Source: an uncultured Bifidobacterium sp. (GTDB taxonomy: Bacteria; Verrucomicrobiota; Verrucomicrobiia; Limisphaerales; JADLHS01). From it: a stretch of DNA of 46,661 bases. The stretch's first letter is position 1; each line of letters starts with the position of its first letter. Positions 1,779 to 37,120 of this stretch are shown in pieces. The translations under genes and the position numbers were made by a program. The notes beneath the pieces were generated by a model that was given only the letters and a program-made list of their open reading frames with translations, did not search any database and was not told the origin of the DNA. The stretch covers positions 1 to 46,661 of the forward strand of contig CAYSDO010000002.1 of assembly GCA_964429665.1 (NCBI GenBank). The letters are read 5' to 3'.

Positions 1779-2127
1779 GGTAGTCCCGTCGTTCGTAGTC
1801 AGTAGTCCCAATTTCTGCTTTCTGTTTTTTATATTTCTGCTTTGTAATGCGCGCATGTCAGCATTTCAGTTTGTCAGCCTGTCAGCTTTTGTGGTCCGTG
1901 TGTCAGTCGTCCCGTGGTCTTGTCCTCCGATTTCTACTTTCTGTTTTCACACTTTCAGTCTTTCAGTATGTCAGCTTTTTGCTTTGTAGTCTGTGGTCAT
2001 TTCACATTTCTGCTTTCCTTGGCCCGTGAAGTGTGCCGTTTACTGCTTCACAGGGCTGTTCTCCCAATTTCAGCGTTTCAGCGTTTCAGCGTTTCAGCGT
2101 TTCAGCGTTTCAGCGTTTCAGCTTTTG
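1779..2127 (+). repeat. mosaic repeat block A (GTAGTCC, TTTCTGY, GTCAGC/TTTCAGC modules and one hairpin module)
   Basis: Direct reading: gtagtcccgtcgttcgtagtcagtagtccc / aatttctgctttctgtttttt / catgtcagcatttcagtttgtcagcctgtcagc / hairpin 2021-2056 / octamer run. Lies between the divergent GH5 and AraC genes. Confidence 0.9.
2071..2126 (+). repeat. perfect tandem octamer (CAGCGTTT)x6 plus one variant copy
   Basis: Counted base by base: CAGCGTTT at 2071, 2079, 2087, 2095, 2103 and 2111; variant CAGCTTTT at 2119. Confidence 0.95.
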
Positions 2128-2456
2128 CCCGTGCGTCCCTTTTATGCATGTTGGCCGTACCGCTCACACCGCTCCCAAGGTAAATACCCTCAGTAAATAT
2201 ACTGATCCTGATCCGTTAAAGCCGCTGATTGATGGCACACGAAGTCCGGCGTATGATCTGCAATGCCTTTGACATCAGTGCATAATATAACAATGTGAAC
2301 CGTTTGTCCTGTTCGACTTTCCCGTCCGCTTTTTCTTTTACTGGGTAATGAAAGAAACGTTCTTCAATCCTCAAGGCCCAAATATGTATGGACACTTGGG
2401 ACTTGCTGGACTTAAATCAAGCCAAGTTCAAAACCAATCTCATTCTCTCGAAGTAA

Positions 2457-3647
2457 TTGTCATTCGTGACGCTTCGAGAGGGGGGCACGTCCGCCAGCAG
2501 AGTTCTTGAGCTTTGTAGAACAAGCGATTTGGAAATGGTTGGCAGCAACGTCATTCTAAATTCAGAAGGGTACCAGGTGCTCGGCCAGGAATTTTTAACT
2601 CTCAGGTTGGTGCGGCTCAAGTCCAACGAGGAATGGATCTCCAAGCGCGACGGCCTTTCTCTTTTGTTTCCAAAGACCGGGAACGGAAAATATGTCGCCG
2701 GATCCAGAACACATCGGCTTTCGCCGGGAGATGTGTTTGTTTTTAGCGAAGGAGACGGTCGCGAGAAATTGAGCGTTGCCAGTGGAACAGAAATCGTCTT
2801 TTGGTGCTTCTCATTGCGTCTCGAACATCTCTATCCCCTGTTCGCAGGCAATGAGATCTCACTGCTGGATGCGGTGGTTGAGGAGTTGAAGTCGCCAAAG
2901 CTTTTTCCGGCGCCCACCCCGCTGGCAAAACAGTGTCATCGGTTGATTGAAGACATTCCGTCCCAGCTCAACCTGGATCATCGCAGCCAGTTGCTCCGGA
3001 TCGCTGCCGCAATTTTATCGGAGGAATTCAGGATGGCACAGCACCGCCGGATCGGTGTTCAGGGAATCGAGGAACATACCATCAAGGTGTTCGAGAGCCT
3101 CTCCGGTGACGAACTCGTCGGGCTTTCAGTCGGGGATCTGGCCGCCAGGTTCGGCTGCAGCCGCCGGCATCTGAACCGTCTGTTTCACCAGTACTTCGGT
3201 TACTCGGTCGCGGCGCTGAAAATGGAGATGCGGTTGCTCAAGGCGGTCTCGTTGTTGCGCGACCGCAACATGAAGGTGATCCATGTGGCGGAACGTTGCG
3301 GTTTCAATCATCTCGGCCTGTTCAACACCTGCTTCAGGCGGCGCTTCAGCGTAAGCCCCGGTCAATGGCGAAAGCAGGTTGCTGCTGACGAAAACCCGCC
3401 CGTCCCTCTGGCGTCAAACCACACGGAATGTCCTCTCCATCCCAAGGGATTATGTCCATGGACTGGCCGCGCGGATTATTTTATTTCTGCGGCGGCAAAA
3501 GCTGCTTCGGCCCTAGGATCCGAAAAAAAGGGCTTCGCAAAGGCGTTGCCCCTGCCCAATCCGCAGTTGGAACAGCGGGTGATCCCTCTGCCTCACAAAA
3601 AACCAGCAGAACTCCAAACACCCGGCAGATCGCAGGCCCAGGGTTGA
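2457..3647 (+). CDS. AraC/XylS-family transcriptional regulator
   Basis: C-terminal double HTH: LSVGDLAARFGCSRRHLNRLFHQYFGYS ... VIHVAERCGFNHLGLFNTCFRRRFSVSPGQWR. Start uncertain (alternative ATG at 2535). Sits directly upstream of the export genes. Confidence 0.85.
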   Translation: MSFVTLREGGTSASRVLELCRTSDLEMVGSNVILNSEGYQVLGQEFLTLRLVRLKSNEEWISKRDGLSLLFPKTGNGKYVAGSRTHRLSPGDVFVFSEGDGREKLSVASGTEIVFWCFSLRLEHLYPLFAGNEISLLDAVVEELKSPKLFPAPTPLAKQCHRLIEDIPSQLNLDHRSQLLRIAAAILSEEFRMAQHRRIGVQGIEEHTIKVFESLSGDELVGLSVGDLAARFGCSRRHLNRLFHQYFGYSVAALKMEMRLLKAVSLLRDRNMKVIHVAERCGFNHLGLFNTCFRRRFSVSPGQWRKQVAADENPPVPLASNHTECPLHPKGLCPWTGRADYFISAAAKAASALGSEKKGFAKALPLPNPQLEQRVIPLPHKKPAELQTPGRSQAQG

Positions 3648-3662
3648 GTTCCCTCCAATTTT

Positions 3663-4991: not shown

Positions 4992-6013
4992 TGACATCTG
5001 TTTTTCAGAAAAGGGTTCCGGGTTTTCGCAGATCCGCCGCTGGCGTTGCGGCCGCAATTGTGTTCTTGCTGGCCATTGCGCAGACACAGGGCCAGTCACA
5101 ACTGACCTATGAGGAATTGATGCGCCGCGCCCGCGGCCTTCCCGCCACCAACTCCACAATCAAGACCGCCACCAACTCTCCCGCCGTTTCGAGCACGCCA
5201 CCCAAGGTTGCTGTAGCTCCACCCGCAAAAATCACTCAACCCTCAACCCTCAACCCTCAGCCAAAATCAATCAACCCTCAACCCTCAACCCTCAACCAAA
5301 AACAATCAACCAACCCGCAACGCACCAGCACCAAAAAAACAAAAGGCCCGGTCTACTCCAATCCACCTCCCACCAACTCTGTCTCTTCAGCCCCGCTCCC
5401 GTCTCCTCCGGCTCAGACCCAGGACGCGCCGGTTGCGCAGCCGCTTGCCGGTGACTCAATCTCGACTAACGCCATGGAGTCCTTGGATGAAAAATATCGC
5501 CTCGCCATCGGCGACCGACTCAGCTTCCGCATCATCGAGGACGAGGAGGATCCAAAACCCCTGTTCGTCACGGACTCGGGAGAATTGGAGGTCCCATACG
5601 TCGGACGTTTCCGCGGGGTCGGCAAGACCTGCCGCGAACTCGCAAGGGCGCTGAAGGCGGAACTGGAAAAGGAGTATTACCACCGGGCCACGGTGATCAT
5701 TGCCGTGGATTTGATGGCCCGCAGTCGTGGCAAGATCTACTTCGCAGGGGCCGTCCGCATACCCAACCCCATTGACATGCCGGCCGATGAAACCCTCACC
5801 GTGAGCAAGGCGATCCTCCGCGCCGGCGGCTTTTCAGATTTTGCTGACAAGCGCAACGTCAAGGTCAACCGCAAGGCGGCCACTCCGGACGGGCAGGACA
5901 AGATCTTCAAAGTTAATGTCGAGGAGATCTTGGAAAAGGGAAAAACAGATTCGGATATGCCTCTGGAACCAGACGATTTGATCTACGTCCCTGAAAAACT
6001 GATCCGGTTTTAG
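4988..6013 (+). CDS. polysaccharide export protein, short OPX/Wza family (Poly_export + SLBB) with low-complexity N-terminal region
   Basis: YRLAIGDRLSFRI...LEVPYVGRFRGVGKTCRELARAL (Poly_export-like) then KIYFAGAVRIPN...ILRAGGFSDFADKRNVKV...PDDLIYVPE (SLBB-like). GTG 4988 or ATG 4991. Residues ~40-150 are P/T/S/N/Q-rich. Confidence 0.85.
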   Translation: MMTSVFQKRVPGFRRSAAGVAAAIVFLLAIAQTQGQSQLTYEELMRRARGLPATNSTIKTATNSPAVSSTPPKVAVAPPAKITQPSTLNPQPKSINPQPSTLNQKQSTNPQRTSTKKTKGPVYSNPPPTNSVSSAPLPSPPAQTQDAPVAQPLAGDSISTNAMESLDEKYRLAIGDRLSFRIIEDEEDPKPLFVTDSGELEVPYVGRFRGVGKTCRELARALKAELEKEYYHRATVIIAVDLMARSRGKIYFAGAVRIPNPIDMPADETLTVSKAILRAGGFSDFADKRNVKVNRKAATPDGQDKIFKVNVEEILEKGKTDSDMPLEPDDLIYVPEKLIRF

Positions 6014-6066
6014 GATGGAAACCCTGAGCCCATGATACGATCAACCCAGGTAAAAATAAAGAACCC

Positions 6067-8205
6067 GTGAGCGGACACTTGATTCCATCGCCAGACAACG
6101 AGTATCTGCCTCCACAGGAGGAGCAGCCCGCGGCGGCTTCGTTGTTCCAGTTGCAGCGCTACCTCGTCTTCCTGCGCAGGTGGTGGTGGATTCCGCTGGT
6201 GACTTTGCTCGTCGGTTCCGCTGTGGGCGTCGCGTTCGTTCTTTTGAAGGAACCAACCTTCGTTTCCAAGGGGCGGATGTGGGAGACCATGAAGCTCCGC
6301 CTTCCGGACAAAGAGATTTTTTCTGATGATAGCCAGAATTCCATCGGCACTCAAAGCGATGTATTTCAAAGCTCCGCGCTTCGCGAGCAGGCCTTGGCCC
6401 GCATGAAGGCTTCTACAAATTCTGCCCCCTTGATCGCATTGGACAAGGATCGCCAGCCGCTGCCCGTCCGTATCCGTGTCACCGGCTCCGCCAAAAGCTC
6501 GGTCTTCCTCATCGAAGCCAGCAGCGCCAACCCGCGTTACACCCAGGCCTACCTGGACGCCCTCATGGAGGCTTTTCTCGAAAACAGAAAAAACAATCGC
6601 AAGGAGATTTCCGGAGTCACCTTGGCTTCCATCTCCGAGCAGGTCCAGCGTTGGGAGAGGGACCTCAAGGCCGCCCAGGACGCCCTCAATGTGTTCCAAC
6701 AGACAAACAATCTGGCCATCCTCCAGGAGGAGGGCACCATCGCGGGCAGTTACCTGGTCAAACTCAAGATTCAGCTTTCGGATCTGCAATTGGAAATGCG
6801 CCTGCTCAACGCCAGCGTTCCCGCAACCAATCCTCCACCCATAATCGCAACGAATCCGGATGCCATTGCCCGGGATTCCTCGTCACCACCCAATCCAGCG
6901 CCCGCCTCCGCAGCTTCGGCGGAAACGCAGTCCAGTTTCAAGGAGGTCGAACTGCTCAAGATGCAACGCGCAAAGTTGAGCCAGTTCCTGCGTCCCAAAC
7001 ATCCCAAAATCGTCAAGCTGGACGCCGACATCGAGCGCGGACAAAAACTTCAGGAGATCTTCGGGCAGCAATCCCGGGATCAACTCGCCGCCGCGCGGAG
7101 AGACAACCAGTTGCGGATACAAAACGTGCTCGAAACCATAAGGGATTGGGAAACCAGGGTCATCGCCGCAAATGGCCGTATCGCAGAGGCCGAACGCCTC
7201 AAACTCAATATTCAACGTCTCCAGAGCGTTTATGACCGCTTGGAGCTTCTGGTCCAGAACGTCGGCTTCAGCCGGAATATTGATCAGGAATCCCTTTCCA
7301 TCCTCGAACCCGCCTCTCCGGTCGAACGCTCCTATACCAGGGAAATCAGCGGGCTCGCTCTCTCGGTGGTCTCAGGATTCGGTTTGGGCCTGGCTATCAT
7401 CGGCCTCATCTCATTCCGCGACGACCGTTTGCTCTCCGTCACCGAGGCAAACTCCAAACTCGGCGATTCCATCGTGGCCATGTTGCCGCAGATTGATTCT
7501 GCCAACGGAAAGGGCGACCTCACATTGCTCACCAATGATGATCCACGTCACATCTATGCCGAGGCCTATCGCAGCCTCCGTTCCGCCCTTCTCTTCCTGA
7601 CCCCGGAGAACGAACGGCCCAAGGTCATACTCATCACCAGCGCCACCCCCAACGAAGGCAAGTCCACCATCGCCGCAAATCTCGCGCGCATGCTGGCCCT
7701 CGGCGGCTCCCGGGTGCTCCTCGTGGACGCGGACCTTCGGAAAGGTCACCTCCACAAATTGCTCGAACTTGAAAGCGAACCCGGCCTCATCGAACTGCTC
7801 CACAAACAGAGTGAGCCCCAGGCGGTCATCCAGACCAATTCCCTCCACAATTTTTACTTTGTCGCACGCGGAAAATTTTCAGGCAACCCGGGCGATCTGT
7901 TTCTCGACTCGGCCCTCGAGCACATCCTCGCCCGCTGGCGGCAGGAATACGATTACGTCGTCATAGACAGCAGTCCCTTGTTCGCGGCGGATGACGCGAG
8001 CTGTCTGGCGGCCAAGGTGGACGGAACGCTTTTCGTCGTCCGGAATTATCACTCAAGCGCCCGCGCCGTGCGCGAAGCGCTGGACATCCTGGCCCGACGC
8101 CAGGCCCGCGTGCTTGGACTCGTTTACAACGGAGCCGACGCCTCGGCGCGCTCCTATAACTATTACAAATACCCGGACTATTACGCCACCAGCAAGGCAG
8201 TCTGA
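6067..8205 (+). CDS. polysaccharide co-polymerase (Wzz domain) fused to BY-type tyrosine autokinase (Wzc/EpsG/GumC-like)
   Basis: N-terminal TM plus a long coiled-coil periplasmic region, then a second TM. Walker A ATPNEGKSTIAANLA, A' VLLVDADLRKG, B YVVIDSSPL. C-terminal Tyr cluster SYNYYKYPDYY. GTG start. Confidence 0.9.
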   Translation: MSGHLIPSPDNEYLPPQEEQPAAASLFQLQRYLVFLRRWWWIPLVTLLVGSAVGVAFVLLKEPTFVSKGRMWETMKLRLPDKEIFSDDSQNSIGTQSDVFQSSALREQALARMKASTNSAPLIALDKDRQPLPVRIRVTGSAKSSVFLIEASSANPRYTQAYLDALMEAFLENRKNNRKEISGVTLASISEQVQRWERDLKAAQDALNVFQQTNNLAILQEEGTIAGSYLVKLKIQLSDLQLEMRLLNASVPATNPPPIIATNPDAIARDSSSPPNPAPASAASAETQSSFKEVELLKMQRAKLSQFLRPKHPKIVKLDADIERGQKLQEIFGQQSRDQLAAARRDNQLRIQNVLETIRDWETRVIAANGRIAEAERLKLNIQRLQSVYDRLELLVQNVGFSRNIDQESLSILEPASPVERSYTREISGLALSVVSGFGLGLAIIGLISFRDDRLLSVTEANSKLGDSIVAMLPQIDSANGKGDLTLLTNDDPRHIYAEAYRSLRSALLFLTPENERPKVILITSATPNEGKSTIAANLARMLALGGSRVLLVDADLRKGHLHKLLELESEPGLIELLHKQSEPQAVIQTNSLHNFYFVARGKFSGNPGDLFLDSALEHILARWRQEYDYVVIDSSPLFAADDASCLAAKVDGTLFVVRNYHSSARAVREALDILARRQARVLGLVYNGADASARSYNYYKYPDYYATSKAV

Positions 8206-8218
8206 ACAATGTAGCCAC

Positions 8219-8412
8219 CGTGGAGCGCCGGCCTCCGGCCCGGCCTGTTCCTGGTTCGGTGGAGCGCTGGCCTCCGGGCCGGCTGTTCCTGGTTTGGTAG
8301 TTTGGCGGTTTGACGGACTCGGTCGTCCTCTGGTGTTTGCTTGGTGTCGTTCGTGTGTTTTGTGGTCCAAAGCGCACAGTGGAGCGCCAGCCTCCGGGCC
8401 GGCCTGTAGTTG
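8219..8412 (+). repeat. three copies of a GC-rich palindromic unit GTGGAGCGCYGGCCTCCGGGCCGGC(C)TGT
   Basis: Copies at about 8219-8258, 8259-8297 and 8379-8412, starting 14 nt after the kinase stop. Each has an internal CCGGCC..GGCCGG stem. A related copy lies at 34673-34695. Confidence 0.8.
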
Positions 8413-8597
8413 GGTCGGCGAAGTTTGAATTTTTGAATTGGTGATCGTTGGAATGAGTGGATGGACAATCAGAACGGAGGCCCCGTTTGAGTCTCGATTC
8501 CGCACAACCATGACCAGACATATCCGTGTACGGTTCGCAGTAGATCGCAGGCCCGACACAAGACCGCCTGCGAATTGACCGGGACGAAGTCTGCCTA

Positions 8598-8655
8598 GGG
8601 AAAAACAGAAAGTAGAAATTGGAAAAGCTGAAACTCTGAAAGCTGAAATCTACTC
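8598..8655 (-). repeat. mosaic repeat module in inverted orientation (GCTGAAA / AGAAAG)
   Basis: gggaaaaacagaaagtagaaattggaaaagctgaaactctgaaagctgaaatc is the reverse complement of the TTTCAGC + TTTCTAC modules. It is the only inverted copy seen in the window. Confidence 0.85.
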
Positions 8656-8690
8656 CATCACCCGGTTTTTCTGTATAAACGCGTAGTTTG

Positions 8691-8789
8691 ACAGCCTTTC
8701 AGCCTTTCAGCCTTTCAGTTTGTCAGCCTTTCAGTATTTCAGTTTGTCAGCATTTCAGCGTGTCAGCATTTCAGTTTGTCAGCCTTTCA
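8691..8789 (+). repeat. mosaic repeat block B (TTTCAGC/GTCAGC modules incl. (CAGCCTTT)x3 at 8692-8715)
   Basis: cagcctttcagcctttcagcctttcagtttgtcagcctttcagtatttcagtttgtcagcatttcagcgtgtcagcatttcagtttgtcagcctttcac. Confidence 0.9.
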
Positions 8790-8802
8790 CAATCTAATAA
8801 AA

Positions 8803-9165
8803 ATGAGGCTGTCTGAAGAATTGAGGCGACGAACGAAGCGATACGCATCGGCGACGATTCAGCTGTATGTGAAGCTGCCCCGCGGGCGCAAAGAAGTTGA
8901 AGTGCTCGGTCACCAATTATTGCGCTCCGGCACGTCCGTTGCCGCCCATGCCAGAGAGGCATCCCGCGCACGCTCAGACAGCGAGTTTTGCTCGAAATTG
9001 GACGGACTACTTCAAGAAGCGGACGAATCCGGGCTCTGGTTGGAATTGCTGCGGGATGATTGTGCGATCGAAGGTGAAAACCTCGATCACTTGGTGCGCG
9101 AAACCGACGAACTGCTCGCCATCTTCACCACCATGGTTGCAAAACTCCGCAAGCGCGCCGCTTAA
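8803..9165 (+). CDS. four-helix-bundle protein (23S rRNA intervening-sequence protein / Avd-like family)
   Basis: MRLSEELRRRTKRYASATIQLYVKLPRGRKEVEVLGHQLLRSGTSVAAHAREASRARSDSEFCSKL..EADESGLWLELL matches the characteristic pattern of this family. The track ORF starts at 8776 on a repeat-borne ATG; ATG 8803 is preferred. Confidence 0.8.
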   Translation: MRLSEELRRRTKRYASATIQLYVKLPRGRKEVEVLGHQLLRSGTSVAAHAREASRARSDSEFCSKLDGLLQEADESGLWLELLRDDCAIEGENLDHLVRETDELLAIFTTMVAKLRKRAA

Positions 9166-9216
9166 TTTCAGATTGCCAGCCTTTCAGCGTTTCAGCCTTT
9201 CAGCGTTTCAGCCTTT
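9166..9216 (+). repeat. mosaic repeat block C: (CAGCSTTT)x5 ending 6 nt before the exosortase ATG
   Basis: Octamers at 9177, 9185, 9193, 9201 and 9209 (alternating CAGCCTTT/CAGCGTTT); ATG at 9223. Confidence 0.9.
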
Positions 9217-9222
9217 AACGTA

Positions 9223-11145
9223 ATGTCCGTCTTCCGTCAATTGGCCCTTCCCCTCGCCCTCTTCTCCATCCTCTGGGTGGATCTCTGCCGTCAGCTCAGC
9301 TACACATGGGACACCAACGAACAATACGCCTATGGTTGGTTCGTTCCATTGCTCGCCCTCGGCCTGTTCATTCGCCGCTGGCCCACCCGCCCATCCCCCC
9401 AACCCACAGCATTTCAAGGTTTCAGCGTTCCAGTATCTGCCTTGACCGCTTCCCCAATTTCAGCGTTTCAGCGTTTCAGCATTTCAGCATTTGTCTTCCT
9501 GCTTTGCCTTTTACTGCTCCCCCTCCGCGTCATCATTGAGATCAACCCGGATTGGCCGCTCATCACCTGGCCCTACACACTCATCGTCGTCGCCCTCACA
9601 CTCTACGCCATCCACCTCGCCGGTCCGAGGTCTTCACCCCGTGAGATGTCCGGACCGGCTATCTCACCGGGGTCAGCGTTTCGCCGTTTCATTTCTGTTT
9701 TCAACTTTCTCAATTTCCGCTTTTCCCCTCGTCCTCCGTCCTCCGTTGTCGGTGGTCCATCACCCGAGTCTCCTAACCCTATTTCTGCTTTCTACTTTCA
9801 TAATTTCCGCTTTTTCAAGCTCTCCCCTTGGGTGGCCCACTTCGCCTTCCCCGTATGCTTCATCTTGGTCGCCGTCCAATGGCCCTACCGGATCGAGCAC
9901 GGCCTCACCCAGAACCTCATGCAGATCGTCGCCTCCCTCACCGTCGAGATCATCGGCTGGTGCGGCATACCCGCAATCCAGCAGGGCAACCTGATCGAAC
10001 TGAGCACAGGTGTCCTCGGCGTGGACGAAGCCTGCAGCGGCATCCGCTCCTTTCAATCCACGTTGATGGCCGCACTATTCCTTGGCGAACTATATCTGCT
10101 TCGTGTCCCGATCCGGTTGTTGCTCGTCGTGGCTGGCCTGGGCGCAGCCTTCCTGTTAAACGTCTGCCGCACACTTATCCTCACTTGGCAGGCAAATGCG
10201 CACGGACTGTCGGCAATTGACAAATGGCACGACCCGGCCGGCTTCACCATCGCCATCGCCTGCTTCGGCGTCCTCTGGCTCCTCGCCATCCTCATCAAGA
10301 AGCGCTGGCCCGTTCCTGATCCTCAACCATCCTCGTCCGACATTGATCCGTCGTCCTCGGCCCGTGAGATGGCCACTCGGCCCGCGGAATCAGTTCGATA
10401 TTCCACCGGGTCGCCTATCTCACCGGGGCAGCTTTCTGCTTTCCCAATTTCTGCTCTCTGCTTTCACCCCTGCCGCCATTACCTCCTTATTATTTCCTGC
10501 TGGGTTGTATTCGTGGTCCTGGGTAATCAAATATGGTACGGGATGCATGCGCGAAAAGTGGATGCTTCGCTCCGGTGGTCCGCCATGCTTCCCTCCAAAA
10601 AAAGCACCTACAAAGAACTGACCCTCACTCCAAAGGAACTGGCAGCACTAAAGTGCGACACTAGACAAGGTGGTTCATGGAGGGAGGCTGATGACACGCA
10701 ATGGGCAGTCTGGTTCTTTCGGTGGGATTCCCAGTCCCTGCTTTCACTGGTGGCTGCCCGTTGCCATCGCCCGGAAGTTTGCTTGCCTGCAAGCGGACGC
10801 AAGATGAAGGCCGATCACGGCCTTCGTTGGTACAAAGCGGGTGATCTTAGTCTTCCATTTCGCACTTACGAATTCGATAACGGCGATCAACCGCTGTATG
10901 TCTTCTTCTGCCTCTGGCAGGATGGCACCGAGCAGTTGCCGGTTAAGGACAACCTTGCCTTGGCGGGCCGACTGTGGGCCGCATTCAACGGCAGGCGAGC
11001 TCTCGGCCAGCAAAGTCTGGAAATCATCATCAGCGGCGACTCCTCTTTTGATGCTGCAGAGCAAGCCGTGCGCGAGCGTCTGCCGGGGTTGATTCGGATT
11101 GAACCGCCTGCTCCACTGCGGCAAAGTGCTGTGAACTCCCGATAA
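9223..11145 (+). CDS. exosortase (EpsH/Xrt family) fused to a C-terminal EpsI-like domain; carries three repeat-derived in-frame segments
   Basis: LSYTWDTNEQYAYGWFVP (N-terminal motif), GVDEACSGIRS (catalytic Cys), NVCRTLILTW (Arg) and KWHDPAGF (His). The C-terminal ~200 aa contain CHRPEVCLPASG, resembling the EpsI HxPxxCLPGxGW motif. Confidence 0.85.
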   Translation: MSVFRQLALPLALFSILWVDLCRQLSYTWDTNEQYAYGWFVPLLALGLFIRRWPTRPSPQPTAFQGFSVPVSALTASPISAFQRFSISAFVFLLCLLLLPLRVIIEINPDWPLITWPYTLIVVALTLYAIHLAGPRSSPREMSGPAISPGSAFRRFISVFNFLNFRFSPRPPSSVVGGPSPESPNPISAFYFHNFRFFKLSPWVAHFAFPVCFILVAVQWPYRIEHGLTQNLMQIVASLTVEIIGWCGIPAIQQGNLIELSTGVLGVDEACSGIRSFQSTLMAALFLGELYLLRVPIRLLLVVAGLGAAFLLNVCRTLILTWQANAHGLSAIDKWHDPAGFTIAIACFGVLWLLAILIKKRWPVPDPQPSSSDIDPSSSAREMATRPAESVRYSTGSPISPGQLSAFPISALCFHPCRHYLLIISCWVVFVVLGNQIWYGMHARKVDASLRWSAMLPSKKSTYKELTLTPKELAALKCDTRQGGSWREADDTQWAVWFFRWDSQSLLSLVAARCHRPEVCLPASGRKMKADHGLRWYKAGDLSLPFRTYEFDNGDQPLYVFFCLWQDGTEQLPVKDNLALAGRLWAAFNGRRALGQQSLEIIISGDSSFDAAEQAVRERLPGLIRIEPPAPLRQSAVNSR

Positions 11146-13865: not shown

Positions 13866-14100
13866 GTCCGTTTTTCTGTTTCTGCTTTCTGCTTTCCATG
13901 TTCTTGTTTTGAAATGTCAGTATTTCAGATTTCTGCATGTCACTTTTTGTTGTCCGTAGTCAGTCGCCTGTAGTCATTTTGAATTCCTACTTTCCTCGGC
14001 CCGTGAAATGGCGCGCCTACTTCAGGGGGCTGCATTTCAGCTTGTCAGCATTTCCGAATTTCTGATTTGCTTCAGTTTTCCTTGATTCAGTTTTCCTTGA
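13866..14100 (+). repeat. mosaic repeat block D (TTTCTGY, GTCAG, GTCCGTAGTCAG modules, hairpin 13998-14030, 15-bp tandem duplication 14071-14100)
   Basis: gtccgtttttctgtttctgctttctgctttcc...gaaatgtcagtatttcag...tgtccgtagtcagtcgcctgtagtc...cggcccgtgaaatggcgcgcctacttcagggggc...cagcttgtcagcatttcc. Confidence 0.9.
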
Positions 14101-16621: not shown

Positions 16622-16710
16622 AATCTCCTCGCAGGAATTGCCTTTTCTGAGCGATAAGGTGTTTTCAATCCTGAGCCGCTTCATTGTGCCTTTTGCCTGC
16701 GTTGCTTCCG

Positions 16711-16908
16711 ATGGCTGACATTGTTGTAATCGCCGGCGAGAAAAGCATGAATCACGTCCAGCCGTTACTCCAGCGGATTGAACCCGATGCAGGATTGGTC
16801 GTTCAGCACAACTAGGCAACCATCCTGTCGCACAATCCACGGGTCGTCCTTTGCTTTGATGATTACCATTTGTTGTTCTTGAACGTACTGGCGCAGCTCT
16901 GGCAATGA
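16711..16908 (+). pseudogene. decayed copy of the N-terminus of the downstream gene (17382..18626), interrupted by an in-frame TAG at 16813
   Basis: My translation MADIVVIAGEKSMNHVQPLLQRIEPDAGLVVQHN*ATILSHNPRVVLCFDDYH... is collinear (one-residue offset, no gaps) with MDIVVLANRYKVHHFRNLEERFAGRFGYEGSYDPTAIRRHKPALVVCFDEHF... of the next gene. Frame stops again at 16906. Confidence 0.5.
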
Positions 16909-17381
16909 AACATCAGTTTGCTCCTGATGTTCGATGGCATTCTCCAATGGCGAAGAACATTCGAATAATAACTTGACCGTGAGCATCTCCGCCTTTGAGG
17001 AAATGGGCCCTTCAGGTCTTGGGAACCTTTGTCGCGCGCAGGGCAAAGACCGGCAACAATCCACCATTCAGCACTTACACGGGCTACTTTGCCATCGCTC
17101 AGAAGTCCGGCAAATTGGAACAGTCTCAGGAGATTGATGCCAGCAAGGCAGGCCGGTTTCTGCCGCTACTCGTTGATCCAGTCACCAAACCCCCACTCAC
17201 GTTTGAAAGCCACCAAGTGCACAACATCGAAGGTGATCTCTACGAGTTTACCAAAGGAATCCTCGACCTCTGTCCCAGGCAGGGCCTTTTGCAGCTCGCC
17301 GGGCGACCTTGGGCCAAAAGATGAAATCCATGCTCGGAAACATCATTCCAGACCCTAGGTCACATAAATGAGCAAACCGCA

Positions 17382-18626
17382 ATGGACATTGTTGTTTTAG
17401 CCAACCGATACAAGGTGCATCACTTCCGGAATCTGGAGGAGCGCTTTGCGGGCAGATTTGGCTACGAGGGAAGCTATGACCCTACGGCCATTCGCCGCCA
17501 CAAGCCGGCGCTCGTCGTTTGTTTCGATGAACATTTCTGCGAATTAGGGAATGCAATCGGCCACCTCCAAAGCCAGGGAGTAGCCACGCTTCAGGTGGTG
17601 GACGGCATTCTGGAATGGCGGCGCACCTGGGACTATACACGGGAGGGCCACAGGATTGACGGGGTGGCGAATCCTATCAACCAACCGGCGCTTTCCCACA
17701 AGATCGCATGTCTGGGCCGACGGGATGCGCGCATCATGGAAAGCTGGGGCAATTTTGGAAAATGCGAAATCGTCGGCGCCCCGCGCATGGATCATCTGGT
17801 CAGTAAGCGGCTGGCTGGCACAATCAAACCGGCGCGCCAACCAGGGCGACCGCCCCGCGTCCTCGTGATGACGGCCAAGACGCCGGGCTTCACGGAGCAG
17901 CAAATAGCAACTACCAAAAGATCCCTGGCAGATTTGCGCGATTACTTCCTGTCGCAAAAAGAGGTGGATGTCGTCTGGCGGTTGACCCGGGAGCTGGATG
18001 CAGAACTGGGTATTGAGAACCGGCTCTCCGATCTCACCGGCGGTGAGTTGCACGCAATTCTGGAAGAGGTGGACGCCGTCATCACAACACCGTCAACATC
18101 GCTGCTGGAAGCAATGCTGCTGAACCGGCCCGTGGCCCTTCTCGATTATCACAACTGCCCGCACTATTTCGAGACCGCATGGAGCATTTATTGCCGCGAT
18201 CAAATCGCGCCCGTTATCAGCGAACTGCTCGCCCCGCCGGTGGCCCGGATGGACTATCAGGCATTCCTGCTGGACGAACAACTTGCCTGCAAGTCACCGG
18301 CCAGCGACCGGCTGGCCAGGCTGATCGAAGGAATGCTGGAGGCGCACAAGCAATCCACGGGTCCGAAGATGAACTTCCCGGTGCGCATGTTGGAAGATGC
18401 AGATTTGTTTGTCAGCAGCTCCCTGCCTCTTGGAAAATTCCGTGCGAGGTATCCCGAGTTTCCCGTCCCGGACGACATGCCTATGCGGGAGATGAAGACG
18501 GAATTGTCCGCCGCGCGCGGGACGATCCGCACCCTTTATGAAAAAGTCGAGCTGTTAGAACGCCGGCTATCCGCGATTCCCGGCTACTCGTTCCTCCGCA
18601 AGCTGCGCAAAAAGCTACGCCGCTGA
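17382..18626 (+). CDS. conserved-looking protein of unassigned family; possible GT-B-fold polysaccharide biosynthesis enzyme with C-terminal coiled coil
   Basis: 414-aa ORF in the operon. GELHAILEEVDAVITTPSTSLLEAMLLNRPVALLDY resembles the C-terminal nucleotide-sugar-binding half of GT-B/KpsS/TagF-like enzymes. No family signature recognised with certainty. Confidence 0.6.
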   Translation: MDIVVLANRYKVHHFRNLEERFAGRFGYEGSYDPTAIRRHKPALVVCFDEHFCELGNAIGHLQSQGVATLQVVDGILEWRRTWDYTREGHRIDGVANPINQPALSHKIACLGRRDARIMESWGNFGKCEIVGAPRMDHLVSKRLAGTIKPARQPGRPPRVLVMTAKTPGFTEQQIATTKRSLADLRDYFLSQKEVDVVWRLTRELDAELGIENRLSDLTGGELHAILEEVDAVITTPSTSLLEAMLLNRPVALLDYHNCPHYFETAWSIYCRDQIAPVISELLAPPVARMDYQAFLLDEQLACKSPASDRLARLIEGMLEAHKQSTGPKMNFPVRMLEDADLFVSSSLPLGKFRARYPEFPVPDDMPMREMKTELSAARGTIRTLYEKVELLERRLSAIPGYSFLRKLRKKLRR

Positions 18627-25968: not shown

Positions 25969-26110
25969 GTTCATTGGCTCACAATCTCAATCGGATTTAT
26001 CCTTGCGCGCTGGCGGGCCCGCATAGCTCGACAATTATTGTTTCTTGGCTTCGAGTAGCCGGATGAAAGGCTTTTGTGCTGCGTGGTCAAATTTTTTCGA
26101 TCGAAAGGGT

Positions 26111-27715: not shown

Positions 27716-27852
27716 ATATTCTAGCCATTAACATACCACATAAATGCTGGTTGGCTGTGGTTAGCGGCACGGTTTTATAACGGTAATGGACTTAGCTTGT
27801 AGAACCGGCCCATGCAAGTCAATCAGTACATACGATTGATAGCTTCTTAACT

Positions 27853-30555: not shown

Positions 30556-31030
30556 CCCTGCTTTCTGTTTTCTGCTTTCTATTTTCTCAATTTCTGTTTT
30601 GTAATGTCAGGTTTCAGAATCTCAGCCTTTTAGCTTTTCAGCATGTCAGCTTTTGTTTGGTCGTCCGTCGTCCGTCGTCCGTTGTCCGTGGACCTTGGCC
30701 CGTGAAGTCCTGTCCCTCTACTTCACTGGGTCCGGCCCGTGAAGTCCTGTCCCTCTACTTCACTGGGTCCGGCCCGTGAAGTGTGCCGTTTTACTTCACC
30801 GGCCTGCTTTCCATATTTCTGTTTTGAAATGTCAGCGTGTCACCTTGTCAGCATTTCAGAATCTGGCGTGTCCCGTAGTCCGTAGTCAGTTGTCCGTGGT
30901 CCCGATTTCTACTTTCTGTTTTCCTAATTTCTCTTTTGTTTTGGTCCGTAGTCAGTAGTCAGTAGTCATTTCTAATTTCTGCTTTCCCAATTTCAGATTT
31001 TTAGTTTGTCAGCATTTCAGCTTTTGCTTT
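30556..31030 (+). repeat. mosaic repeat block E (largest contiguous block; all four module types)
   Basis: Begins 1 nt after the GT stop and ends at the GTG start of the next gene. Order: ctgctttctgttttctgctttctattttctc.. / ..tttcagaatctcagcc..cagcatgtcagc / gtcgtccgtcgtccgtcgtccgttgtccgtgg / three hairpins / further TTTCTGY, GTCAG and GTAGTCA runs. Confidence 0.95.
30697..30804 (+). repeat. triple tandem of the hairpin module (two exact 37-nt copies plus one loop variant)
   Basis: ggcccgtgaagtcctgtccctctacttcactgggtcc at 30697-30733 and 30734-30770; ggcccgtgaagtgtgccgttttacttcaccggcc at 30771-30804. Confidence 0.95.
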
Positions 31031-32077: not shown

Positions 32078-32395
32078 TGTCAATTTTAGCCCGGATTATT
32101 TCAGCGTTTGAGTATTTCAGCTTTCTGTTTTCTGCTTTCCATATTTCTGTTTTTTTGTGTTTGGTTTCAGCATTTCACTTTTCAGTATCTCAGTTTTTCA
32201 TTCGTGCTAATTCGTGAAATTCGCGTCTCACCTGGGCCCGTGGAGTGGCCCTTCGCCCGTTATCCTTGGCCCGTGAAATGGCCATGCATTTCACTGGGCC
32301 GTATTTCAGCTTTTGCCTTGTGTGATTTCTGCTTTCTACTCTCTGCTTTGGTCGTGACTGTTTCAGCTTTCAACTTTTTGACTTGGTCCATCCGT
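32078..32395 (+). repeat. mosaic repeat block F (TTTCAGC, TTTCTGY, an ATTCGTG motif, hairpin 32268-32300 and a degenerate hairpin 32234-32259)
   Basis: atttcagcgtttgagtatttcagctttctgttttctgctttcc...ttcattcgtgctaattcgtgaaattcgcg...ttggcccgtgaaatggccatgcatttcactgggcc...gatttctgctttctactctctgc. Confidence 0.9.
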
Positions 32396-32424
32396 GATCG
32401 AATCGCGTTTTATAGTCTAGGTTT

Positions 32425-32871
32425 ATGAATCAACCCACCGAAGATTTGAAATTGATTCACGGCGGACAACACTCCGACGCTCGCGGCTCCATTGCTTTCG
32501 TGAATGGATTCAATTTCAAGGGTGTGGACCGCTTCTACTGGATCACAGCGGAGGCGACAAACACACAACGCGGCTGGGTGGGCCATCGCCGGGAGCAAAA
32601 ATGGTTTACCGTACCCCAGGGAGAAGTGCTGATTGCAGCAGTCAAACCGGATGATTGGGAGCGACCGGATAGGAATCTGCCCGTGGCAAGGTATCTTCTT
32701 TCTGCAACCCAACCGCAGGTGCTTCATGTGCCGCCGGGCTACGCGACGGCCAGCGTGAACCTACACCCCCACGCGGTGCTCATGGTCTTTTCCTCAGGCA
32801 GAATTGAAGACGCCAAAACTGACGACTTTAGATTCCCGCTGGATCATTGGCCAATTCAGGCTGCCCCCTGA
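32425..32871 (+). CDS. WxcM/FdtA-like cupin (putative NDP-4-keto-6-deoxyhexose 3,4-isomerase)
   Basis: HSDARGSIAFVNGFNFKGVDRFYWITAEATNTQRGWVGHRREQKWFTVPQGEVLIA...LHVPPGYATA fits the D.RG...R.f....RG.H.H cupin pattern of this family. Confidence 0.65.
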   Translation: MNQPTEDLKLIHGGQHSDARGSIAFVNGFNFKGVDRFYWITAEATNTQRGWVGHRREQKWFTVPQGEVLIAAVKPDDWERPDRNLPVARYLLSATQPQVLHVPPGYATASVNLHPHAVLMVFSSGRIEDAKTDDFRFPLDHWPIQAAP

Positions 32872-33412
32872 TTTCTGCTTTCTGTTTTCTAAATGTTAGC
32901 ATTTGTATTGAGACCGCAATTCAGGTTTCAGAATCTCAGCCTTTCAGCATTTGTTTTTGGCCGCTTTCTACTTTCTGCTTTCTTGATTTCTGTTTTGCAA
33001 TGTCAGCCTGTCAGGATTTCAGCATTTCAGATTTTTGCTTCTTGCTTTGTAGTCCGTGGACCTTGGCCTGTGAAGTCTGCCGTTTACCGCTTCATTGGGC
33101 TGTTCTCCCACTTTCAGCTTTTCAGTATGTCAGCATTTCAGCTTTTTCGATTTTTGCTTCGTAGTCAGTGGTCAGTTGTCCGTGGTCCCAATTTCAGCTT
33201 TCTGCTTTCTTAATTTCTGTTTTGCAATGTCAGCCTGTCAGGATTTCAGCTTTTCAGCGCTTCAGCTTTTTGCTTTATGGTCCGTTGTCCTTATTTCTGC
33301 TTTCTGCTTTCCCAATTTCTGTTTTGAAATGTCAGCGTGTCAGCCTGTCAGGATTTCAGCTTTTCAGCATTTGTTTTTGGCCGCTTTCTCCCTTCCCAAT
33401 TTCTAATTTTGC
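32869..33412 (+). repeat. mosaic repeat block G (~540 bp; starts on the TGA of the preceding gene)
   Basis: Repeated units of gatttctgctttctgttttc / gtttcagaatctcagcctttcagc / ttgcaatgtcagcctgtcaggatttcagc (three near-identical copies at about 32995, 33225 and 33330) / gtagtccgtgg / hairpin 33065-33100. Confidence 0.95.
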
Positions 33413-33477: not shown

Positions 33478-33888
33478 ATGACCGACATCGAAACTCAGCA
33501 GCGCTTCGTCTTCCTCCGCTCTCAGGGCTGGAGCTTTGCCCGCATCTCCGAGGACCTCAAGGTCTCCAAACCCACGCTCATCAACTGGAGCCGCAAATTC
33601 CAGTTCGACATCCAGAACCAGCGCGCCATCAACATCGAGGCCCTCCAGGAAAAATGGCTCTCCACGCGCGATGTCCGCGTCAACGCCCTCGGTGAAAATC
33701 TCCGCAAGGTCGAGGCCGAACTCGCAAAGCGCGATCTCACCACCGTGCCTACGCGCCAGTTGTTCAGTCTGGCCGGCTCGTTGCGCCGCGAGATCAAACA
33801 CGAAACGGGGACCTTGCAATTCACATCACCCATTTCCCAGATCCCCAACGATGAATACCACGAACAAGTCCAGGACTGGAACCCTTGA
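33478..33888 (+). CDS. small HTH-domain protein (function unknown) followed by a coiled-coil segment
   Basis: AAGGA lies 6-10 nt upstream of ATG 33478. FVFLRSQGWSFARISEDLKVSKPTLINWSRKF is a canonical HTH, then ...LRKVEAELAKRDL. The track ORF 33337.. starts on a repeat-borne ATG. Confidence 0.6.
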   Translation: MTDIETQQRFVFLRSQGWSFARISEDLKVSKPTLINWSRKFQFDIQNQRAINIEALQEKWLSTRDVRVNALGENLRKVEAELAKRDLTTVPTRQLFSLAGSLRREIKHETGTLQFTSPISQIPNDEYHEQVQDWNP

Positions 33889-33985
33889 GGCGTGCGCTCC
33901 GATGGTAGGGCGTGTCGCGCTGCGACCGCCTTCCCTGGCGCATGTCTGCCGTTCGAGAATTTCGGCATTTGGATGTTGGGTATTT

Positions 33986-34306
33986 GGTCGTCCCATCGTC
34001 CCCAATTTCCCCATGTCAGATTTTCAGTATGTCAGTATGTCAGCATTTGTTTGGTCGTCCCATCGTCCGTGGTCCATGGTCATTTCGTATTTCTGCTTTC
34101 TTTATTTCTGTTTTGCAATGTCAGTTTGTCAGCCTTTCAGCCTTTCAGCATTTGTTTTTGACCGCTTTCTACTTTCCTTGGCCCGTGAAGTCCTGTCCCT
34201 TACTTCACCAGGCTGCTTTCCCAATTTCAGTTTGTCAGCCTTTCAGCCTTTTGCTTTCTGCTTTCTGCTTTCCCAATTTCTGTTTTGAGACAAATGTCAG
34301 CTTTTT
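33986..34306 (+). repeat. mosaic repeat block H
   Basis: ggtcgtcccatcgtcccc / atgtcagattttcagtatgtcagtatgtcagc / ggtcgtcccatcgtccgtggtcc / atttctgctttctttatttctgttttgcaatgtcag / cagcctttcagcctttcagc / hairpin 34180-34213 / ctttctgctttctgctttcccaatttctg. Confidence 0.95.
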
Positions 34307-34314
34307 AGAATGCA

Positions 34315-34584
34315 ATGCGTAACCTGACCCACAATCTTAGCCGCAATGCGACCCGGTACACCACGCGCATGATCGGCGGCCTCCGACGCCCGCCCCAGCC
34401 GGACTATTTGGGCATCGCCTGCCGCGCCTTCGAAAAAGTCTATGAGATTGATCGGCGGCTTCAGCCCTACATCCAGGAACAGATCCGCCTGCAGAAGCAA
34501 CGCGCTTTCGAAGCACAGATTGATGCCGCCCTCGACCGCGTTTACGGCCCGGAAACGAAGCAACCAGATGCTGGTCCGCAGTAG
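34315..34584 (+). CDS. hypothetical small protein (89 aa)
   Basis: ORF lies in unique, non-repeat sequence between two repeat blocks and has an ordinary amino-acid composition (..ACRAFEKVYEIDRRLQPYIQEQIRLQKQRAFEAQIDAALDRVYG..). No recognisable family. Confidence 0.35.
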   Translation: MRNLTHNLSRNATRYTTRMIGGLRRPPQPDYLGIACRAFEKVYEIDRRLQPYIQEQIRLQKQRAFEAQIDAALDRVYGPETKQPDAGPQ

Positions 34585-34823: not shown

Positions 34824-34983
34824 CAATTTCAGCTTTTGCTTGGTAGTCCGTGGTCAGATGTCCATGGTCATTTTGGATTTCTACTCTCTGCTTTTGATAT
34901 TTCTACTTTTGTTTGGTCGTCCCGTTGTCCGTTGTCCGTGGTCCCAATTTCAGCTTTCTGCTTTCCCAATTTCTGTTTTGTTT
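34824..34983 (+). repeat. mosaic repeat block I-1
   Basis: caatttcagcttttgcttggtagtccgtggtcagatgtccatggtc...atttctactctctgc...ggtcgtcccgttgtccgttgtccgtggtcccaatttcagctttctgctttcccaatttctgttttg. Confidence 0.9.
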
Positions 34984-35076
34984 AGAAAATCGAATCCGGT
35001 AAAGAAATGGTAAACAAACGGTAAAGTTTTCCCCCAATCCCGGACCTCTCAATCTTAATCCCAATCACGCTGGCTG

Positions 35077-35212
35077 GATTTCAGCTTTTCAGCATGTCAG
35101 CATTTCAGCTTTTGTTTGGTCGTCCGTTGTCCATTGTCCGTAGTCCGTCGTCCGTGGTCCCAATTTCTACTTTCTGCTTTCTCAATTTCTGGTTTTCAGT
35201 ATCTCAGCGTTT
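35077..35212 (+). repeat. mosaic repeat block I-2, ending 6 nt before the DUF218 ATG
   Basis: gatttcagcttttcagcatgtcagcatttcagcttttgtttggtcgtccgttgtccattgtccgtagtccgtcgtccgtggtcccaatttctactttctgctttctcaatttctgg. Confidence 0.9.
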
Positions 35213-35217
35213 AACTG

Positions 35218-36000: not shown

Positions 36001-36050
36001 TCACAATCCATCGCTTACTCCTGCTCTTAACCTGGTACCCTGTCGTGGCG

Positions 36051-36332
36051 CTGTTTTCCAAATTTCAGATTCTCCGCCTTTGCTTCTTTGCCCCGTGGTC
36101 AGTGGTCATTTCTGCTCTCTGCTTTTCCAATTTTTTGATCCGTGGTCAACAGCCAGATTTCTGCTTTCTACTTTCCCGATTTCAGATTTTCAGTTTGTCA
36201 GCATTTCAGCTTTTGTTTTGTCGTCCCGTCGTCCGTCGTCGTTAGTCCGTTGTCATTTCTACTTTCTGTTTTCCCAATTTCTGTTTTGAAATGTCAGTTT
36301 GTCTGCTTTTCAGCATTTGTTTTTGGCCGCTT
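36051..36332 (+). repeat. mosaic repeat block J
   Basis: ctgttttccaaatttcagattc...ccgtggtcagtggtcatttctgctctctgc...gatttctgctttctactttcccgatttcagattttcagtttgtcagcatttcagc...gtcgtcccgtcgtccgtcgtcg...atttctactttctgttttcccaatttctgttttgaaatgtcag. Confidence 0.9.
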
Positions 36333-36794
36333 TTGAAATCTCTATCCCAAACCTGTCTCCGCTTCGTTCTGGCCCTCTACACCGGCCTGCTCTTGTACGT
36401 CACCCTTTGGCCGTTCCAGTTCACCTCCCATCCCGGACGCAACACAACAAACCTCAAGAGACATGTCGAATGGATTCCTTTCACAAGGTTGTGCCCGAAC
36501 CACGGCCTCTTCTGCCCGCGCGACACCGGTTTGAACCTCGCAATGTTCCTCCCCTTCGGCGCCTTGGTAGCCTTGATGTCTTCAGCTGAGATTGGCCGGA
36601 TGCGCCGCGTTGTTCGCGCTGCCGCCTTGGGTTTCAGCCTCAGTTTGCTGATCGAGACTACACAGTATTTCATACCCGTCCGTTATCCCAGCACCACCGA
36701 CCTCTTGTTGAACACGTTGGGTGCGGGTCTGGGCGGGCTCGTCGTTTTCACCACTTCCAAAACCAGGCCATTGAAAATGCCGCATCAACCATAA
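36291..36794 (+). CDS. VanZ-family membrane protein
   Basis: LLYVTLWPFQF...WIPFTRL...NLAMFLPFGALVAL...SLLIETTQYFIPVRYPSTTDLLLNTLGAGLGGLV. ATG 36291 is repeat-borne (aaATGTCAG module), so the real start may be the in-frame TTG at 36333 (MKSLSQTCLRF..). Confidence 0.8.
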   Translation: MSVCLLFSICFWPLLKSLSQTCLRFVLALYTGLLLYVTLWPFQFTSHPGRNTTNLKRHVEWIPFTRLCPNHGLFCPRDTGLNLAMFLPFGALVALMSSAEIGRMRRVVRAAALGFSLSLLIETTQYFIPVRYPSTTDLLLNTLGAGLGGLVVFTTSKTRPLKMPHQP

Positions 36795-36799
36795 GGTGT

Positions 36800-37120
36800 T
36801 TGATGTTTTGGAGCTTTGAGTTTGGTATTTGCTGTTTAGTTTTTGCAGTTCGGGATTTGGTGTTTGGTGTTTTGCCAGTCCGTGGTCCGTGGTCGCGTAG
36901 TCCGTGGTCCCAGTTTCTGCTCTCTGCTTTTCATATTTCTGCTTTTGCTTGCTAGTCCCGTTGTCCGTGGTCATTTTGTTTTTCTACTCTTTGCTTTTGT
37001 TATTTCAGATTTTCAGCATGTCAGCATTTCAGCATTTGCTCTGTTGTCCGTGGTCCCGATTTCTACTTTCTGCTTTCCATATTTCAGATTTTCAGTTTGT
37101 CAGCCTTTCAGCTTTTGCCT
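36800..37120 (+). repeat. mosaic repeat block K (GT-rich TTTGGTG leader, then GTCCGTGG, TTTCTGY and TTTCAGC modules)
   Basis: ggtgtttgatgttttggagctttgagtttggtatttgc...gtccgtggtccgtggtcgcgtagtccgtggtccc...atttctgcttttgc...atttcagattttcagcatgtcagcatttcagc...gatttctactttctgctttcc...cagtttgtcagcctttcagc. Confidence 0.9.

Follow-up and report, generated by a model that had tools for sequence, protein, structure and literature searches.

Arrays of 7-8-nt repeats between bacterial genes, the STRRs and the TAACTGA repeats among them, have been known for decades and have no accepted function. STRR heptamers belong to heterocystous cyanobacteria and were reportedly described by Mazel et al. in 1990; polysaccharide operons, for their part, are where Rho utilisation (rut) sites and ops/JUMPStart elements occur. 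TAACTGA heptamers, known from marine Beggiatoaceae and from some Cyanobacteria and Bacteroidetes, lie shortly before start codons that have no canonical ribosome-binding site, and binding by S1, Csp or CsrA has been proposed for them (MacGregor 2015, PMC4679880). Repetitive extragenic palindromes (REPs) form head-to-head or tail-to-tail dimers, head-to-tail arrangements being rare (PMC3733652). Here we compare with these systems a polysaccharide locus in a 46,661-nt stretch that equals a complete contig of an uncultured verrucomicrobial bacterium, phylum Verrucomicrobiota (CAYSDO010000002.1, assembly GCA_964429665.1; hereafter the window, meaning the whole stretch that was analysed), in which blocks of 7- and 8-nt repeats occupy most of the longer gaps between genes.

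Our preferred reading, held tentatively, is that the blocks are clade-specific short-period direct-repeat arrays, an expression signal that would have overgrown into satellites, and not a termination device specific to the locus. They belong to an array family of the intergenic simple-sequence-repeat kind, present in Verrucomicrobiota and in phage contigs, and what is new in comparison with described repeats is that several units follow one another in a fixed cycle together with a hairpin, that they are conserved across a clade and that phages have them too. Four modules are involved: a, TTTCTRY heptamers; b, TTTCAGCN/TGTCAGCN octamers; c, GTNGTCC heptamers; and H, a hairpin of 33-37 nt. Sequence reading, parsing and Tandem Repeats Finder (TRF), with which tandem arrays were called, upheld the 13 blocks that an initial annotation of the window had assembled from these modules, at a measured total of 3,349 nt where roughly 3-3.5 kb had been estimated. 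The blocks, together with the runs lying inside an exosortase open reading frame (ORF) and the gene most closely associated with the arrays, are as follows.

1779-2127, plus strand: c a b c a b c a H b7, a composite block lying where a GH5 cellulase gene (700-1737, minus strand) and an AraC-type regulator gene (2457-3647, plus strand) diverge, both genes named from Pfam
2021-2057, plus strand: hairpin module H, GGCCCGTGAAGN-loop-NCTTCACNGGGC; other copies at 13998-14031, 30697-30731, 30734-30768, 30771-30804, 32268-32300, 33065-33101 and 34180-34214
8598-8655, minus strand: the sole reversed block, A-rich on the plus strand, ahead of a four-helix-bundle gene remnant (8656-8690)
8691-8789, plus strand: pure b array of 12 octamers (12.2 by TRF), ending 13 nt before the four-helix-bundle ATG
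8803-9165, plus strand: four-helix-bundle gene (PF05635/TIGR02436), with an array directly against either end
9166-9216, plus strand: b array of 5 octamers, directly after the TAA stop and ending 6 nt before the exosortase ATG at 9223
9420-9492, plus strand: b-type run, in frame within the exosortase ORF (SAFQRFSISAF-like peptide)
9690-9810, plus strand: a-c-a composite run, in frame within the exosortase ORF
10431-10465: further a run, in frame within the exosortase ORF
13866-14100, plus strand: a b a c H b, a composite block that separates a DegT-type aminotransferase gene from a flippase gene
30556-31030, plus strand: composite block of two c>a>b cycles with three head-to-tail hairpins (30697-30804), bounded by the stop of a GT1 gene and the GTG of a WecA-like GT4 gene
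32078-32395, plus strand: composite block with a hairpin at 32268-32300
32869-33412, plus strand: largest block, 544 nt, in which a 102-nt higher-order period spans 33178-33372 and a hairpin occupies 33065-33101
33986-34306, plus strand: composite block with a hairpin at 34180-34214; 8 nt separate its b end from the ATG of a small ORF (34315-34584)
34824-34983, plus strand: composite block b c a c b a
35077-35212, plus strand: one b>c>a>b cycle, ending 5 nt before the DUF218 ATG
36051-36332, plus strand: composite block between the DUF218 and VanZ genes
36800-37120, plus strand: composite block downstream of the VanZ gene; a GGTGTTT-type run opens it, and a truncated Bac_transf pseudogene lies beyond it

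Between 1.8 and 37.1 kb TRF calls over 60 arrays with a period of 7 or 8, and nowhere in the window does it call one past 37116, in agreement with the claim that none lies beyond 37121. As also claimed, the T-rich strand is the plus strand in all blocks but one (12 of 13), and the window-wide counts are strongly biased: double a units occur 39 times on the plus strand and twice on the minus strand, double c units 25 times and never, the hairpin core eight times and once, and TTTCAGC 54 times and five times, respectively. On the plus strand the blocks contain 43% T, 24% C, 19.5% G and 13% A, compared with 24/29/26/21% (T/C/G/A) for the whole window. The module order, taken at first to be variable, is in fact a cycle, c>a>b>c, with 39 forward transitions (15 a>b, 13 c>a and 11 b>c) against eight reverse ones; because of this cyclic order and the 102-nt period that TRF detects at 33178-33372, the blocks are iterated composite units of ~100 nt in which the number of sub-repeats varies. 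The 21-nt a>b junction ATTTCTGTTTTGNAATGTCAG is present in seven copies in the window, where shuffled sequences give an expectation of 0.00, and identical junctions at so many sites imply that copying between sites has taken place. The module set matched no named family, as had been supposed: Rfam gave no match at gathering score over the whole window, the literature searched did not contain the unit runs (one unrelated 11-mer matched in primer lists) and no paper on Verrucomicrobia repeats was found there.

Of the 13 gaps that exceed 60 nt in the region from 1.7 to 37.3 kb, 10 hold arrays, by a tally of the ORF list and measured gaps, as does the 57-nt gap at 9166-9222. The statement that they fill almost every junction is overstated: the gaps at 16622-17381, 25969-26110 and 27716-27852 have none, and from 9.2 to 30.5 kb the genes mostly follow one another without spacers. 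Exact abutment on genes is real at 30556, 32869 and 9166, the blocks directly touching the stop codons at 30555, 32871 and 9165; at the other end, however, blocks stop 6 nt short of the ATG at 9223 and 5 nt short of that at 35218, and the GTG at 31031 is an inferred start. Nor do all plus-strand frames stay open, since each block contains between zero and six stops per frame. Most starts in the window lack a Shine-Dalgarno (SD)-like motif, and b runs end 5-18 nt before five of the starts (8803, 9223, 31031, 34315 and 35218). RNA of the blocks folds worse than dinucleotide shuffles of the same sequence, with z-scores of +1.93 for 32869-33412 and +1.81 for 35077-35212.

The b arrays are also found in phages. 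IMG/VR was scanned for three b units, and arrays were obtained in 45 stretches from ~30 contigs, most of them 55-65% G+C, where tape-measure and tail-fibre-like genes adjoin them; the analysis set aside the three low-GC stretches (39-40%). These arrays are short, mostly of four units, and many begin 0-3 nt past a stop codon, with a TTTT-pyrimidine tail and then an ATG after them. On the T-rich strand, a start that opens an ORF lies within 15 nt downstream of 22 of the 66 distinct arrays, in 21 cases at 6-12 nt, compared with 12 of the 66 on the other strand and 13% of random positions; the gene downstream is co-directional in 39 cases and opposite in 20. Arrays inside co-directional gene strings, 0-3 nt past a stop, number 20, against nine at divergent junctions. 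Because the distance from array to start is more uniform, among the rows listed, than that from stop to array, the phage element appears to be placed relative to the start codon, and this fixed position, with the preference for the sense strand, points to a role at the RNA level. A reversed b array with a forward one directly behind it, which could form a long hairpin just upstream of a gene, was observed at ~1360-1460 and, nearly identically, at ~5270-5370 of one phage contig (L125), and at 17398-17577 of a host locus (L107).

Among the closest described counterparts is the TAACTGA repeat. Both are tandem 7-8-nt direct repeats that lie between genes of unrelated function, vary in copy number and stand a few nucleotides upstream of starts without a canonical ribosome-binding site, as seen here for the 21 phage arrays at 6-12 nt and the five window starts, and the reverse strand of TAACTGA, TCAGTTA, shares a TCAG core with the b unit. 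In contrast, only that core is common to the units of the window (TTTCAGCN, TTTCTRY and GTNGTCC), which include an 8-nt period and follow a fixed cycle with a hairpin in higher-order units of ~100 nt and blocks of up to 544 nt; the present arrays come from Verrucomicrobiota and phage contigs, and the sense strand in the window is T-rich, whereas TAACTGA is read A-rich upstream of genes.

The same units recur in the polysaccharide loci of other genomes, which we designate by L numbers; L087, L098, L107 and L111 are metagenome contigs, from peat, lakes and elsewhere, to which the four-helix-bundle gene led. CTGCTTT is common to five independent genomes, CAGTGGT to four, AGTCCGT to three and the CAGCNTTT variants to three or four each. 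Orthologues in the unit-sharing genomes have 57-76% protein identity (58% for the WecA-like protein), and the four-helix-bundle gene across these loci is 82-85% identical in protein and 72-77% in DNA. The array density of the window is far higher than that of other Verrucomicrobiota loci. Other Verrucomicrobiota have 7-8-nt units of their own, such as ACCCTTGG, repeated 35 times in L015. The relatives L004 and L005 contain ACTGAAT/ATTCAGT heptamers, a further point of resemblance to the TAACTGA repeats. The exact a>b junction ATTTCTGTTTTGNAATGTCAG had no match among GTDB species representatives; three matches to it in JGI metagenomes were rejected as chance because the other modules are missing there. 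A protein search with the translated block 33095-33406, aimed at spurious ORFs over arrays elsewhere, found no match, and a look-up of the DegT protein of the window also gave nothing. The initial annotation implied that the units are specific to the polysaccharide locus, but they extend to the phage tail-gene modules and to toxin-antitoxin islands: in a lake or peat relative (L087 at 5400-10000, and L088-L096), arrays separate a series of toxin-antitoxin pairs (PIN, PhdYeFM and UPF0175/DUF3368) inside a glycosyltransferase locus, and gene callers have placed spurious minus-strand ORFs over them.

Nearer relatives show how fast the contents of a junction change. Loci L084 and L086 belong to GCA_013140495.1, whose proteins are 93-98% and flanking DNA 86-91% identical to those of the window, and L085 is a Logan contig; the same junctions hold arrays in all three, but with different contents. 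Upstream of the four-helix-bundle gene, L086 has 23.1 octamers where the window has 12.2, and downstream it has eight where the window has five, which supports the earlier suggestion that the blocks are slippage-prone spacers. At the junction 35077-35212 the contents of L084 and L085 differ from those of the window, the c part upstream of DUF218 being (GTCTGTAGTCGGTG)4(GTCAGTG)3 in the close relative and a GTCGTCC-type run in the window; the module strings of the DUF218-VanZ spacer (c4 a3 c4 a3 c4 a1 in L084) and of the spacer downstream of VanZ also differ. Copy number and module content therefore change fast at orthologous junctions, the behaviour expected of replication slippage and unequal recombination. 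The contigs of metagenome-assembled genomes (MAGs) L084, L085 and L012 terminate within arrays, as is expected because multi-copy repeats break short-read assemblies. Since the units persist at deep divergence while near-identical genomes differ in copy number, the comparison argues for sequence-specific maintenance.

These features also recall the STRRs and other long simple-sequence repeats, in which a few lineage-specific heptamers are tandemly amplified and dispersed between genes, with slippage as the accepted source of length change. The window has tandem arrays above chance, lineage-specific dispersed units and a copy number that varies between close relatives, and the c variant GTGGTCA is one base from STRR2 (TTGGTCA). 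The unit set is different, however, and to our knowledge the description of STRRs includes neither a cyclic order and hairpin nor in-frame copies nor phage copies spaced from starts.

In the window and its relatives, arrays coincide with gene loss and rearrangement. DUF218 is truncated beside arrays in L004, and in L085 a different gene follows DUF218. A second four-helix-bundle gene retains its first 24 codons (MTFEDLESWQKSRQLTKQIYSITR) in L086 (2196-2380, from reversed block to b array), and at 8598-8690 of the window only a few codons are left (8656-8690), ~95 nt more having been lost than in L086; its history reads as a stepwise deletion between oppositely oriented arrays. The Bac_transf sugar-transferase gene is intact in L084 (2210-3544, 444 residues), whereas the window (37262-37540) keeps only its first ~90 codons, the deletion of ~1.3 kb extending to where the next gene starts.

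The arrays had been described as intergenic, but module runs also lie in frame inside genes. The N-terminus (residues 21-60) and the core (residues 194-373) of the window exosortase align with the exosortase of L012 (282 residues), and the intervening 133 residues match ~48 in L012, the extra DNA consisting of the in-frame b, a and c runs. Similarly, at 8836-8970 of L004 an in-frame insertion of 52 residues in DegT, a little ahead of the part that aligns with the conserved FSF..K motif, gives an alignment gap against the window DegT that corresponds exactly to heptamer arrays, and a b-like run lies within a DegT-type gene at 1740-1790 of L085. Arrays can thus expand in frame inside genes.

In our preferred reading, the conserved core would be a (TTTCAGCN)n octamer array with a TTTT-pyrimidine tail, embedded in the lineage of the window in the ~100-nt unit c > a > b, with H optional, which is itself iterated. 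A transcribed array would give a pyrimidine-rich leader or intercistronic spacer unable to pair with itself, and an unpaired leader of this kind would keep start codons without an SD site accessible; it might also recruit ribosomes, for example through S1 or another protein that binds periodic single strands. The octamer core probably serves as an unstructured leader that lets translation begin where there is no SD site. The long composite blocks of the extracellular polysaccharide (EPS) locus would then represent slippage-driven overgrowth of the signal, filling the junctions of a cassette-built locus where they are tolerated, with no dedicated checkpoint at each junction. A stronger proposal, which we think unlikely, is that (UUUCAGCN)n-UUUUYC is a periodic cis-element that replaces the SD sequence in Verrucomicrobiota and their phages and is read in 8-nt register by a protein binding single-stranded RNA; candidate readers would be ribosomal protein S1 or the four-helix-bundle protein, which is always among the polysaccharide-locus arrays. 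Slippage of such an element would tune expression and would yield both composite satellites and in-frame peptide insertions.

Several points weigh against the preferred reading. Most b runs of the window are internal to composite blocks, away from starts, and modules a and c, which form the bulk of the blocks, are absent from the phage contigs that carry b arrays; a scan of viral contigs for a runs gave five stretches on four contigs, in which both orientations occur next to starts. Compact phage genomes place any intergenic element near starts, so that the random-position control is a generous one. A purely selfish or neutral satellite would be equally hypervariable. In addition, although the sense strand is the T-rich strand in the window and its close relatives, it is A-rich, also beside starts, in L012, where both arrays are antisense to three co-directional genes, in L087, with ~16 A-rich units against one T-rich (TRF unit counts; 13 T-rich against one A-rich in the window), in L098, mostly, and in L004; L107 is mixed. 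Members of the family therefore need not share the direction of transcription, and because of these A-rich sense copies a strictly orientation-specific signal does not explain all copies.

The serious rival, even if we consider it rather doubtful, is a functionless satellite, selfish or neutral, which changes by slippage, unequal crossing-over and gene conversion and piles up in tolerated spacers, its uniform orientation reflecting local amplification or a replication-strand bias and not transcription. The hypervariable junctions, the change of orientation relative to genes from genome to genome and the adjacency of arrays to truncated genes and breakpoints (the four-helix-bundle remnant, DUF218 in L004 and Bac_transf in the window) are all as a satellite would have them, and heptamers are the commonest long simple-sequence repeats of prokaryotes, ascribed to slippage by Mrazek (2007) as reported in PMC4679880. 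Moreover, the GC skew at third codon positions of coding sequence (GC3 skew) matches array orientation in four of five clear loci: it is -0.094 in the window and -0.105 in L084, with T-rich arrays, and +0.085 in L087, +0.079 in L098 and +0.157 in L012, with A-rich arrays. A replication-strand effect on orientation is possible, but L004 violates the rule (-0.094 with A-rich arrays) and L107 is mixed. The plus-strand genes of the window share the negative skew with few related loci, most being positive, and the window locus may lie on the lagging strand. Two observations are harder for a satellite to accommodate: the units and the hairpin are conserved at ~72-77% DNA identity, where neutral drift would not preserve them, and compact phage genomes retain arrays at a fixed place relative to starts with a 2:1 preference for the sense strand.

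The hairpin bears more directly on mobility. H has 11 pairs and a bulge, with compensatory changes in five of the 11 pairs among 14 copies from four genomes; it is preceded by CCTT or CCTC, and occurs singly or as the three head-to-tail copies at 30697-30804. It is common to several genomes of the clade besides the window. As in REPs and their mosaics (bacterial interspersed mosaic elements, BIMEs), short motifs are combined between genes at many sites around an imperfect palindrome of 20-40 nt with a conserved stem and variable loop, and Opitutus terrae, also of the Verrucomicrobia, is reported to be rich in GTAG REPs (PMC3733652). The blocks might on this account be non-autonomous REP/BIME-like elements or miniature inverted-repeat transposable elements (MITEs) served by a transposase elsewhere, perhaps an HUH enzyme recognising H on single-stranded DNA, a route that would also yield a replication-strand bias and an orientation that is uniform at each locus and loosely tracks GC3 skew. 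The identical composite junctions require copying between sites, and to that extent the suggestion of MITE-like elements in the initial annotation retains something. We nevertheless consider mobile elements of this type quite improbable: the bulk of each block is direct tandem repeat, there are no terminal inverted repeats (between 30.4 and 37.3 kb the search turned up just six pairs, weak and far apart), the blocks end within repeat units, H does not carry an unpaired GTAG or CGTC tag (both sequences occur only inside c heptamers) and forms no inverted dimers, relatives have blocks at the same junctions without presence/absence polymorphism, and no transposase gene, RAYT included, is present in the window. 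We know of no RAYT gene in this lineage.

We consider it very improbable that the arrays are transcription signals, either as promoters that give leaderless mRNAs or as sites bound in series by a regulator, for example the AraC-type protein of 2457-3647. A distance of 6-12 nt between phage array and start would also suit the spacing between a -10 element and the 5' end of a leaderless message, and nine phage arrays do lie at divergent junctions, upstream of first genes; but most follow a stop codon directly within co-directional strings, the 8-nt period does not correspond to the helical repeat to be expected of site arrays on duplex DNA, and between 28 and 38 kb the scans gave no excess of sigma-70-type promoters (three sites against 5.3 expected) or of intrinsic terminators. 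Least probable of all is the proposal of the initial annotation that the blocks are Rho-loading or antitermination platforms on a long EPS mRNA, with a polarity checkpoint at each junction, from which only a general RNA-level role survives: the blocks do resemble rut, ops and JUMPStart elements in being untranslated, unstructured, pyrimidine-biased RNA on the sense strand between the genes of a long polysaccharide operon, with more C than G, but they are T-rich and their 24% C is below the window average of 29%, which is not the composition of a rut-like site, C-rich and G-poor over 60-80 nt, the ops/boxA motif (GGCGGTAGNNTG or GCTCTTTAACAA) has no match at one mismatch and two at two mismatches, both inside genes, against 2.6 expected, the window gives no Rfam match, the ORFs scanned include no NusG/RfaH-type gene, the modules extend beyond polysaccharide loci and are antisense in comparable loci of relatives, and the fixed start spacing of the phage tail-gene copies points to initiation and not termination.

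For repeats of a kind so long without a function, the conserved units despite hypervariable copy number, the fixed distance to phage starts and the defined higher-order cycle make the question more testable. If the octamer array is a ribosome-recruiting or other expression signal, it would show how translation starts in a poorly studied, SD-poor phylum and would offer a marker for linking phages to Verrucomicrobiota hosts. In practice, short-read MAG assemblies break at the arrays, gene prediction on the T-rich strand yields ORFs that are not genuine, and real proteins gain extra peptide segments from them.

The window is a polysaccharide locus by its gene content, which according to Pfam includes a Wza/Wzc-type export pair, an exosortase, acetyltransferases, a DegT aminotransferase and a flippase as well as many glycosyltransferases, a Wzy-type protein, a WecA-like transferase, DUF218, VanZ and a CapD-type dehydratase; it contains no tRNA gene. 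The best relatives of the dehydratase come from Verrucomicrobiota MAGs, at 75-78% protein identity. The four-helix-bundle protein, of 120 residues, has 5,789 relatives at E<1e-10, the best 120 of which are 79-100% identical to it; its family, PF05635, is that of the 23S rRNA intervening-sequence proteins and of Avd from diversity-generating retroelements. The gene is a conserved passenger: in all five independent loci sampled it (8803-9165 in the window, 2601-2963 in L086 and ~10001-10370 in L087, L098, L107 and L111) lies within a polysaccharide cluster and points the same way, with arrays directly against it, as a rule a reversed b array on its upstream side and a forward one on its downstream side, an arrangement seen in L087, L098, L107 and the remnant in L086.

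Two further genes lie in the densest repeat region, an HTH_23-like gene at 33478-33888, preceded by an SD-like AAAGGA of a kind rare among the window genes, and an ORF of 89 residues without a family at 34315-34584. Neither is a gene of polysaccharide synthesis or has relatives in any locus fetched, and the viral loci fetched likewise contain no relative of the four-helix-bundle protein. Three copies of a distinct GC-rich hairpin repeat (GTGGAGCGCCGGCCTCCGGCCCGGCC...) at 8220-8298 and 8379-8415 lie in a 390-nt stretch without a credible gene, and the repeat is present in L086 too. An 11-nt repeat, CGGTAAAGAAA (2.7 copies), is found at 34997-35026 of the window and at 7502-7531 of L005 (~78% protein identity), its position being kept although the surrounding arrays are not conserved. 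Finally, a CTCAACC heptamer run of nine copies with a higher period of 35 nt occupies 5228-5311, in the 5' part of the Poly_export ORF and upstream of its Pfam match, and a CAACCCT run is present at 8231-8263 of L005.

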